IMG/VR virus record: IMGVR_UViG_2939142107_000001
Span: 1 to 64,000 of that record
Reading direction: 5' to 3' (one strand)
DNA: 64,000 nucleotides
Source of the DNA: a virus
Taxonomy: Duplodnaviria > Heunggongvirae > Uroviricota > Caudoviricetes
The notes beneath the pieces were generated by a model. That model worked only from the letters and a program-made list of their open reading frames with translations, had not been told where the DNA came from and ran no database searches. How positions within the stretch are numbered: the stretch's first letter is position 1; the number at the start of each line of letters is the position of its first letter. Both the position numbers and the translations under genes were made by a program. Positions 14,428-15,908 of this stretch are shown here, one piece after another.

Positions 14428-14465
14428 TATGATGCGAAAAGATAGCATTCGCGACTTAAAAATAC

Positions 14466-14482
14466 AAATTTATTAGAGCAGA
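14466..14482 (-). promoter_or_regulatory. C1 operator (Op51-like) upstream of immI
   Basis: AAATTTATTAGAGCAGA matches the operator consensus at 15/17. Confidence 0.7.
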
Positions 14483-14772
14483 TTAGTGTCGTGCAATAGA
14501 TATATTATTTGTGATGAAAAATAATGCAGAGGGATATTGTAACTTTAAGATGGATATCAATAGTCGATACATAAATTAAGTTAGCAATAAACTATTAACT
14601 TAAGAAATAATGCAGATGGTGAACTTGTCTCTGACTTTTCAGCTATACACAATAAGTTAGGGATAGCTTATAAAAAGTTGATTAATTGATATAAGTCAAT
14701 GGGAGTATTCTTGTTTACTTTTCGTTCTCGTGGTAACTTCTCGCCGGTTTTTGTTTTTCTGGGATGATTCTT

Positions 14773-15285
14773 ATGTCTAAAAAGTATACTTTATGCGCTC
14801 TTGTTGTATCTGCAATTCTTCTTTCTGGGTGTCAATCTAGCGGTGCTGATTATGCTGCCGATGTTTATGATACCGCTCAATTGAATTCGAAGCAGGAAAC
14901 AAAGACAGTCAATATTATCTCTGTGCTTCCAGCTAAAGTGAAAGTTGATAATAAAGCTAATAAAGAAGCGGCACAGACATTTGGTGCGGTACTGGGAGCT
15001 GTTGCTGGGGGCGTTGCCGGTTATAATGTTAAAGGCACATCGACACTGGGTGCTGTAGCTGGCGGTACTGGTGGTGCGGCTCTTGGTGCAGCGGCTGGTT
15101 CTTTGGTTAGTGATAAAACAATTGTTGAAGGTGTTTCACTGACTTATAAAGAAGGAACTAAGGTGTTCACTTCAACTCAAGTTGGTAAAGCATGCCAGTT
15201 TACAACGGGGCTTGCTGTGCTTATTTCAACTAAAGATAATGAAACTCGAATTCAGCCAAATGCTACTTGTCCAGAAAAGAAATAA
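14773..15285 (+). CDS. Glycine-zipper lipoprotein (SlyB/Pcp-like), at the sim locus position
   Basis: Signal peptide with lipobox LLSG|C (Cys20 counted from the ATG at 14773). Gly-zipper stretch GAVLGAVAGGVAGY...GAVAGGTGGAALGAAAG. An alternative ATG lies at 14764. Confidence 0.8.
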   Translation: MSKKYTLCALVVSAILLSGCQSSGADYAADVYDTAQLNSKQETKTVNIISVLPAKVKVDNKANKEAAQTFGAVLGAVAGGVAGYNVKGTSTLGAVAGGTGGAALGAAAGSLVSDKTIVEGVSLTYKEGTKVFTSTQVGKACQFTTGLAVLISTKDNETRIQPNATCPEKK

Positions 15286-15288
15286 TTT

Positions 15289-15828
15289 ATGAATAAAATT
15301 ATTTTATTTCTAATCTTTTCTACGTTTAGTGTAGGCACTGCCTTGGCTAACTCGTTGCAAAGTCAAATTGCTGCTATTGCTCAAGCGGAAAATGAAGGGC
15401 GAGCTAAAGAGCAGCAAGCTGAGGATGCCAGAAAAGAACTTATTCGCCAACAAGCACAAGCTGAACGTATTAGAAGAGAAAAAGCAGCATCTGCCGCTGC
15501 TGCACGCGAAAAACAGCGTGTTGCTGCAGAAAATGAACGTAGAGCGAAACGAGAAGCCGAGCTAGCAAATGACAAGAAGCGAGATCAAGCTTATGAGGAT
15601 GAGCTTCGCAAGCTGCAACTCGAAAGCATGAAACTCGAACTGCAAGCAAAAGCGGCTCGTGTCCAGCGAGAAAACGATTTTATAGAGCAGGAGTTGAAGG
15701 AGAGAGCAGCTAAGACAGATGTAATTCAGTCTGAGGCTGATGCAAATAGAAATATTTCTACAGGAAGTAAAGATTTACTGCAAAGCGAAGGAAAAGCTAG
15801 AGAGAAGAAAGCTAGCAGTTGGTGGTAG
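15289..15828 (+). CDS. Secreted/periplasmic charged coiled-coil protein
   Basis: Type I signal peptide MNKIILFLIFSTFSVGTALA|NS, followed by E/R/K/A/Q-rich heptad-like sequence. Starts 3 nt after the lipoprotein gene. Confidence 0.75.
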   Translation: MNKIILFLIFSTFSVGTALANSLQSQIAAIAQAENEGRAKEQQAEDARKELIRQQAQAERIRREKAASAAAAREKQRVAAENERRAKREAELANDKKRDQAYEDELRKLQLESMKLELQAKAARVQRENDFIEQELKERAAKTDVIQSEADANRNISTGSKDLLQSEGKAREKKASSWW

Positions 15829-15867
15829 TAATCACTACGATTGCGAGCATACTGTCACAAATGACAA

Positions 15868-15902
15868 CTCGTAGAATCTGTTAACAAACTAGATTCTACG
15901 AG
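15868..15902 (+). terminator. Strong hairpin closing the accessory module (no clear T run)
   Basis: 12-bp stems CTCGTAGAATCT / AGATTCTACGAG with an 11-nt loop, ending 6 nt before the pmgC ATG. Confidence 0.5.
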
Positions 15903-15908
15903 GTTTCA

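Follow-up and report, generated by a model that had tools for sequence, protein, structure and literature searches.

The sequence considered here is a 64,000-nucleotide window of a Caudoviricetes genome (IMG/VR record IMGVR_UViG_2939142107_000001, positions 1 to 64,000); all coordinates are positions in this window, and sequence that it has in common with phage-plasmid P1 is called backbone. Between Op(c4), an operator of the C1 repressor, and the late promoter LPsit lie two genes on the plus strand, at 14764-15285 and 15289-15828. As the open reading frame (ORF) list and the sequence itself both show, the second gene starts 3 nt past the stop of the first, a tight spacing that an original prediction made from the letters of the window had described correctly. 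The block that contains them, 14481-15856, is the P7-type allele of a polymorphic "sim slot" in P1-like phage-plasmids and forms a self-contained two-gene operon, whose products are by homology counterparts of the Escherichia coli proteins YfgH and YfgI. The features of this interval are as follows.

14466-14482, minus strand: C1 repressor operator Op(c4) of the immI operon, mapped from the P7 annotation and matching the operator consensus with 2 mismatches; P1 backbone
14481-14763, plus strand: AT-rich leader, recognised by its composition; unique to the P7-type module
14764-15285, plus strand: gene for a predicted yfgH-like glycine-zipper lipoprotein of 173 aa (P7 Upf50.5), assigned by YfgH homology and by SlyB profile and fold matches
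15289-15828, plus strand: gene for a predicted yfgI-like secreted DUF5384 protein of 179 aa (P7 Upf50.0), assigned by PF17358 and YfgI homology
15859-15877, plus strand: late promoter LPsit of the pmgC-tub-pmgB-sit tail operon, P1 and P7 annotations mapped by alignment; backbone
15868-15902, plus strand: hairpin with a perfect 12-bp stem and an 11-nt loop, from sequence, predicted fold and inverted-repeat search; backbone
15909-16475, plus strand: pmgC (tubA in P7), with which the late tail operon begins, from P1 and P7 annotation and the ORF; backbone

The edges of the module are sharp. The match to P1 breaks off at 14480 and is regained at 15857, so that the left junction (14480/14481) falls within the last two bases of Op(c4) and the right junction (15856/15857) abuts the -22 element of LPsit. 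The corresponding interval of P1 contains simA-simB-simC, in that order toward pmgC, and not simC-simB-simA as the original prediction had it. That prediction had left it undecided whether the two genes are diverged sim homologues or a replacement, and the comparison with SimA, SimB and SimC that it proposed decides the matter: neither protein resembles any of the three (best BLASTP E = 0.38, over at most 30 residues), and the module is a replacement of the sim genes. The two occupants are alike in slot, orientation, exported products and their standing as non-essential accessory genes (shown for P1 sim; PMC10695390), and differ in having three genes versus two, in lacking any sequence similarity, and in GC content, which is 33.5% in the P1 sim region versus 40% in the module, itself below that of the backbone. 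The sim region has been described before as a variable, low-GC region of P1-like phage-plasmids (PMC9603915, PMC6906374). Strong homologs and a ratio of nonsynonymous to synonymous substitution rates (dN/dS) of 0.06-0.10 establish that the module genes are real and not chance ORFs.

The first gene product is predicted to be an outer-membrane lipoprotein sorted by the Lol pathway, with the architecture of SlyB and YfgH, in which beta strands flank a two-helix glycine-zipper hairpin. Its lipobox, LSG/C23, is followed by Gln at position +2, which is compatible with outer-membrane sorting, and translation from an alternative in-frame ATG at 14773 would produce a signal peptide of more typical form, beginning MSKK. 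Sixteen overlapping [GA]xxx[GA] motifs lie between residues 70 and 116. The protein is 67% identical to E. coli YfgH over 171 aa (E = 7e-71). The alignment of the YfgH family has a mean column identity of 71% and 33 invariant columns, among them C23 and the Cys pair C144/C169; C23 is invariant across 38 homologs, and all family-invariant residues are kept in the phage lipoprotein. The family profile matches SlyB (PDB 7OJF/7OJG) over its full length (E = 2.2e-9, query positions 9-162), and the sole significant Foldseek match in the PDB is again SlyB (7ojf_A, E = 1.1e-6, TMt 0.65), in line with the SlyB-like glycine-zipper lipoprotein originally proposed. An AlphaFold2 (AF2) model places strands at 45-62, helices at 64-87 and 94-113, and further strands at 118-163, with a low predicted local distance difference test score (pLDDT) in the hairpin. 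Matches to the Pfam glycine-zipper and TraT families were both under threshold.

SlyB, a glycine-zipper lipoprotein of the outer membrane, assembles into rings that enclose BamA and other outer-membrane proteins (OMPs). The phage lipoprotein resembles it in its lipid anchor, its beta domain and its two-helix glycine-zipper hairpin, and differs in that the two are only ~24% identical and that SlyB comes without a DUF5384 partner gene. Two further observations concern the lipoprotein. At residues 90-92, in the hairpin turn, copies on mobile elements carry Lys90 (KGT in the P1-like subclade) where most other family members have GSG, and Lys90 is the sole position of the mature protein that is fixed in this mobile clade and rare elsewhere. 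The protein also matches PHROG 1277 (E = 2e-94), which is labelled "DNA methyltransferase", a name carried in the RefSeq records NC_050152 (P7), NC_031129 (SJ46) and NC_042128 (RCS47); because the protein is a secreted lipoprotein of SlyB fold, this label is a propagated misannotation.

The second gene product is predicted to be a Sec-exported DUF5384 protein that forms a single helix of ~159 residues. It begins with a signal peptide ending ALA/N, which the P7 annotation gives as a 20-aa sig_peptide, and matches PF17358 (DUF5384) over residues 39-179 (E = 3e-43, 147.8 bits versus a cutoff of 25). Identity to E. coli YfgI is 47% (E = 1e-47). The mature protein has 159 aa, of which 41% are D, E, K or R and 19% Ala, and the AF2 model is one unbroken helix from residue 4 to 178 (pLDDT 86.8), so the earlier description of a highly charged protein of 179 aa with a signal peptide holds, as does the envelope targeting of both products. 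The N-terminal two-thirds form a variable spacer rich in Ala, Glu, Arg and Lys; the conserved half is the C-terminal one, with SSWW as its last residues, and heptad-like hydrophobic spacing is seen only in the conserved stretch at about residues 91-140. Fully extended, the modelled helix would measure ~240 Angstrom, which is of the order of the width of the periplasm. A search of PDB sequences with the DUF5384 profile gave no match, and our literature search found no mention of DUF5384.

Both homologies lead to the same place on the E. coli chromosome. The core operon yfgH-yfgI, which sits between yfgG/yfgF and guaA, was matched in 5419 of 5426 genomes in a distant DNA search, and by homology the module is identified as a xenolog of this operon. 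The prophage genes yafY/yfjS-yfjT were also considered as the E. coli homologs and rejected, as DNA and protein searches give yfgH-yfgI. Module and operon are alike in gene order, close spacing, lipobox, glycine zipper, Cys pair and the C-terminal DUF5384 core; they differ in that the window copy is a member of a distinct mobile lineage, has an unrelated leader, carries Lys in the hairpin turn and encodes a partner ending SSWW versus SWFN. The original prediction saw both the lipoprotein and its secreted partner and missed their kinship to a host operon. Among 57 species-representative loci that encode DUF5384 (Enterobacterales, Pasteurellaceae, Pseudomonas, Photobacterium, Tolumonas and some alpha- and epsilon-proteobacterial metagenome-assembled genomes), all but one have a YfgH-like gene directly upstream on the same strand (56/57), which points to the DUF5384 gene as an obligate neighbour of the lipoprotein gene. 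For the window compared with other mobile copies, dN/dS is the 0.06-0.10 given above and dS is near or beyond saturation. The YfgH and YfgI gene trees, built by neighbour joining, are congruent. The pair is under purifying selection, and its two genes move and evolve together.

The same trees separate the mobile copies from the chromosomal operon. The window, a second P1-like allele and a copy in an island rich in insertion sequences (IS; locus L010) group with bootstrap support of 100 in both trees, and these together with two myovirus prophage copies, one from an aspS-site prophage and one from a Salmonella prophage, group with support of 80 for YfgH and 100 for YfgI, apart from the guaA-linked Escherichia/Citrobacter clade. 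Throughout the mobile clade the YfgI-like protein ends in SSWW, not SWFN. Several mobile copies stand at the edge of myovirus prophages, directly after the tail-fibre and tail-fibre-assembly genes (L005-L009, L012, L020), and the prophages that carry the pair occupy two or more integration sites in E. coli and one in Salmonella. A further copy lies on a plasmid-like Salmonella contig of ~100 kb (L019); this contig had no megablast match in the phage collection and was not called a phage-plasmid. In two of the myovirus prophages, L012 and L006, the tail genes are ~88% identical and the yfgHI pairs, at the same position after the tail-fibre-assembly gene, belong to different yfgHI lineages; because of this difference, the position, too, behaves as an exchangeable cargo slot.

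Not every apparently viral copy is cargo. About 60 "viral" loci in IMG/VR, at 47% identity, are in fact core yfgHI genes bordering prophages that lie between yfgI and guaA; these reflect overshoot of the prophage boundary and were left out of the count of phage cargo. Lambdoid or P22-like prophages do integrate at the yfgI-guaA junction, directly past the end of core yfgI (L048, L066 and L070, compared with L003 at ~9182), and such integration is a plausible route for the first capture of the operon by a phage.

Within P1-like elements the module is common, and the feature as such is already known. It corresponds to an annotated allele of P7 in a region known to vary, is found widely, and has a known homologous operon in the host. 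In searches of phage records with megablast, three records named P1 (MH422554, MH445380 and MH445381) match the interval 13900-16500 at 99.4% identity, Salmonella phage SJ46 at 99.3%, and RCS47, JL22, phi456 and P7 at 98.0-98.5%, whereas classical P1 matches on the two flanks only. The P7 record AF503408 annotates the two genes as upf50.5 and upf50.0, both with signal peptides and at 98% DNA identity. It notes the first as an "outer membrane lipoprotein of unknown function", similar to a putative E. coli outer membrane lipoprotein, and the second as a "membrane protein of unknown function", similar to putative E. coli K12 membrane proteins; it names no function for either, and the P7 module shows no difference of substance from that of the window. 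The same genes stand between Op(c4) and LPsit, at 98-100% DNA identity, in P7, SJ46, RCS47, JL22, phi456 and many P1-like plasmids of E. coli and Salmonella. In PLSDB the full module is present in 165 plasmids, and all 167 matching records (145 Escherichia, 22 Salmonella) are at least 99% identical. The full P1 sim region was found in 137 plasmids, and ~160 more have only its first ~214-238 nt followed by other alleles. The module thus occurs in about a third of P1-like plasmids, and among complete E. coli genomes it is plasmid-borne in 175 of 5426; with one such plasmid, NZ_CP031654.1, the window agrees at 100% of positions from 14440 to 15905, and the coordinates coincide as well. The arrangement is not new, being that of P7 upf50.5/upf50.0. 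The SJ46 paper contains no discussion of the two genes.

Two more alleles of the slot were recovered. One, ~77% identical in DNA (loci L016-L018; L016 5032-9298), combines a diverged yfgHI pair with a YfjT-family gene and an SH3-domain gene. The other (plasmid pF1273-3; L015 3068-5352) encodes a secreted protein with the N-terminus of SimA, a secreted YfjT-family protein and a membrane protein with an SH3 domain. Every slot allele examined, whether the Sim trio, the yfgHI-like pair or the secreted/YfjT-family/SH3 set, encodes envelope-directed or exported proteins, which is consistent with envelope modification or exclusion as a shared theme but is no proof of it.

Upstream of the genes, the leader was rightly described as AT-rich: GC content is 30.9% over 14440-14763 versus 47.9% for the whole window, and 27-31% over 14481-14763. 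Its first ~40 nt as originally drawn (14440-14480) are P1 backbone and include Op(c4), the novel sequence beginning at 14481. The leader at 14481-14763 presumably holds the promoter of the module. It has no homology to the upstream regions of other yfgHI loci, an Rfam scan of 13900-16000 gave no match in it, and its predicted RNA structure is no stronger than that of shuffled sequence (fold z = 0.21). A two-copy direct repeat, AAATAATGCAGA(G/T)GG, occurs at 14519-14533 and 14605-14619, 86 nt apart, and could be a binding site for a regulator or a product of chance. On the minus strand of the scanned interval, Rfam detected the C4 antisense RNA at 14200-14285 and its a1/b1 targets at 14353-14405, as expected for immI, and a sub-threshold match to isrK, a Salmonella small RNA family, at 14311-14392 (47.9 versus 50 bits). 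The C1 operator consensus (17 bp, at most 3 mismatches) matches 10 sites in the window versus 0.29 expected, among them 12807-12823 upstream of kilA, 39323-39339 and 55822-55921; these mark the C1 regulon of the phage-plasmid.

At the other end, a perfect 12-bp stem does close 6 nt before the pmgC start codon, as originally reported, although it is not the end of the module. The arms lie at 15868-15879 and 15891-15902, ahead of the pmgC ATG at 15909, and the hairpin folds with -25.8 kcal/mol (z = -5.2). LPsit consists of a -22 element, AAATGACAA, at 15859-15867 and a -10 element, TAGAAT, at 15872-15877; the 5' arm of the hairpin contains this -10 element, and the end of the 3' arm overlaps the Shine-Dalgarno sequence of pmgC (GAGG, 15900-15903). 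In an alignment of the window, P7, P1 and pF1273-3, identity among the slot alleles starts at ACAAATGAC and runs through the hairpin to pmgC, the P1 version having an 11-bp stem. Lying in backbone common to P1, P7 and the third allele, and overlapping both the ribosome-binding site of pmgC and LPsit, the hairpin is part of the control region of the late operon and not of the module. It is unannotated in P1 and P7, and a terminator scan did not call it an intrinsic terminator, since the strong stem is followed by only UUU and no U-tract. Late transcripts would start in the loop, could not form the hairpin and would leave the pmgC ribosome-binding site free; read-through transcripts from the slot genes would form it, so that the ribosome-binding site would be masked or read-through impeded. 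In this way the hairpin may insulate the tail operon from transcription of the slot genes.

What the pair does for the phage or its lysogen has to be judged from its homologs. Mutants of yfgH have outer-membrane defects and aggravating genetic interactions with lptD (PMC3219608). Deletion of yfgH causes sensitivity to sodium dodecyl sulfate and ethylenediaminetetraacetic acid (SDS/EDTA) and loss of OMPs under stress, its overexpression rescues depletion of genes for outer-membrane biogenesis, and YfgH co-purifies with BamA, LptD, OmpF/C/A, LamB and TonB-dependent receptors (bioRxiv 10.64898/2025.12.22.696046). In Salmonella Typhi the orthologous chromosomal operon, srgIL (srgI-srgL), is regulated by SdiA and acyl-homoserine lactones (PMC11619404). 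Because of the 67% identity and the retention of all invariant residues, the biochemistry of the phage lipoprotein is most probably that of YfgH. We therefore favour, at a probability of roughly 0.6 that takes in the identity claims made above, the reading that the genes are an outer-membrane stabilising, OMP-binding module of lysogenic conversion. By analogy to YfgH and SlyB, the lipoprotein would insert its glycine-zipper hairpin in the outer membrane and oligomerise around OMPs and patches of lipid, stabilising both, with the long helical partner working together with it from the periplasmic side. The genomic context suggests that the lysogen would express the pair from the promoter of its own leader, as a lysogenic-conversion "moron", and the host would thereby gain an extra, differently regulated dose of outer-membrane stabilisation. 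Less access of phages and colicins to porin-type receptors would be a possible consequence.

Several points weigh against a role in outer-membrane stabilisation. The role of the phage copy is drawn by analogy from homologs and not from expression or a phenotype of its own. The results on stabilisation, rescue and co-purification come from one 2025 preprint, in which SlyB-like rings for YfgH are predicted by modelling only (bioRxiv 10.64898/2025.12.22.696046). The AF2 model of the phage lipoprotein has a pLDDT of 55 overall and is confident in the beta domain only. Expression in the lysogen is assumed, with no convincing promoter in the leader, where a scan gave a sole sigma-70-like match (14497-14525) that is weak and not above chance. 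For the partner, the sole phenotype of yfgI mutants is sensitivity to nalidixic acid (PMC3536626); because YfgI is secreted, we suspect that this effect reflects envelope permeability and not DNA repair. Finally, a chromosomal yfgHI is already present in the host, which makes it hard to see what a second copy adds and allows for a neofunctionalised role such as exclusion.

Exclusion is the strongest competitor, although we consider it clearly less probable than outer-membrane stabilisation. Here the lipoprotein and its periplasmic partner would mask or immobilise receptors, or block tail penetration or the transit of DNA, as an analogue of the sim genes that they replace. The module occupies the exact slot of the P1 exclusion genes, all examined alleles of this slot encode exported proteins, and on other elements the pair adjoins tail-fibre genes at the edge of myovirus prophages; Lys90 in the hairpin turn is specific to the mobile clade. 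YfgH also co-purifies with OmpF/C/A, LamB and TonB-dependent transporters, which are receptors for phages and colicins, and because many phages and colicins use such receptors, exclusion is a reasonable consequence or specialised function of a YfgH-like protein. Against this, every invariant residue of a housekeeping family is kept at 67% identity, and core YfgH is not known to be linked to phage resistance; because of this close homology to a housekeeping protein that stabilises the outer membrane, the first pointer is to robustness of the envelope. A PADLOC scan gave no match. P1 and P7 use the core of lipopolysaccharide (LPS), and no porin, as receptor, and SimC reportedly acts at a stage after adsorption, so exclusion by the yfgHI-like pair would have to work differently.

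A mobile-element parallel for exclusion is TraT, the lipoprotein of F-like plasmids that confers surface exclusion and complement resistance. Like the phage protein it is an outer-membrane lipoprotein carried on a mobile element and has a similar glycine-zipper segment; it differs in its length of 243 aa and in its N-terminal domain. A profile comparison with TraT, whose query sequence was checked against annotated plasmid genes, gave a local similarity with an hhalign probability of 93.5% (E = 2e-7), over 72 columns that comprise the glycine zipper and one following strand, and the TraT family PF05818 scored 23.1 bits versus a cutoff of 31. This similarity counts for exclusion and is at the same time limited to a low-complexity glycine zipper and under the Pfam threshold; the phage lipoprotein is not counted as a member of the TraT family on these scores. 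The receptor-blocking lipoproteins Llp of T5 and Cor of phi80 and N15 are alike by functional analogy only; none of the families matched in Pfam, PHROGs or PADLOC scans is annotated as an exclusion protein, although no direct comparison with Llp or Cor was made, and NCBIfam returned nothing significant. A more specific form of the proposal, which we hold to be somewhat less probable still, is that a distinct yfgH-yfgI lineage was domesticated by temperate phages (P1-like phage-plasmids and myovirus prophages) as an outer-membrane device for excluding superinfecting phages and colicins, in which rings of the lipoprotein would cage porin and TonB-dependent receptors and the ~240-Angstrom DUF5384 helix would serve as a periplasmic strut or tether.

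It is improbable that the pair modulates the phage's own lytic cycle, by stabilising the outer membrane so as to delay or synchronise lysis or to protect against lysis from without. The module does abut the late promoter LPsit, and YfgH-type proteins stabilise the outer membrane, which is the last barrier in lysis. It lies outside the lysis cassette, however, in a slot that in P1 holds the non-essential sim genes (PMC10695390). The prophage copies stand at classical moron positions with upstream regions of their own, and the orientation of the genes together with the hairpin suggests insulation from the late operon.

Still harder to sustain is the suggestion that the module is a decaying, functionless hitch-hiker from the host chromosome. 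The prophages that integrate directly downstream of core yfgI offer a route for accidental capture, and the GC content of the module is below that of the backbone; yet both ORFs are intact, conservation among the 167 matching PLSDB plasmids extends to the full module in 165, dN/dS is low while dS between mobile alleles is saturated, and the well-supported distinct mobile clade implies long persistence on mobile elements. That the genes are highly diverged simB/simC homologues, and hence ordinary backbone, agrees with their position, orientation and signal peptides and is refuted by BLASTP E values of at least 0.38 over at most 30 residues, by the sharp breakpoints at 14480 and 15857, and by clear full-length homology to other families, YfgH/SlyB and DUF5384.

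As a genomic feature the module is ordinary, and its value is that of a lead to the function of DUF5384/YfgI and to an outer-membrane operon carried by phages. Diverged copies of an outer-membrane stress operon of the host, the chromosomal version of which has only recently come under study, recur in temperate phages. The lysogens concerned often carry resistance genes. P1 and P7, which are otherwise near-identical, provide a natural allele swap, sim versus yfgHI-like, for effects of a SlyB-family protein on the entry of phages and colicins or on the envelope fitness of the lysogen. If the pair were indeed a domesticated exclusion device, it would represent a new mechanism of exclusion and give the DUF5384/YfgI family its first function.

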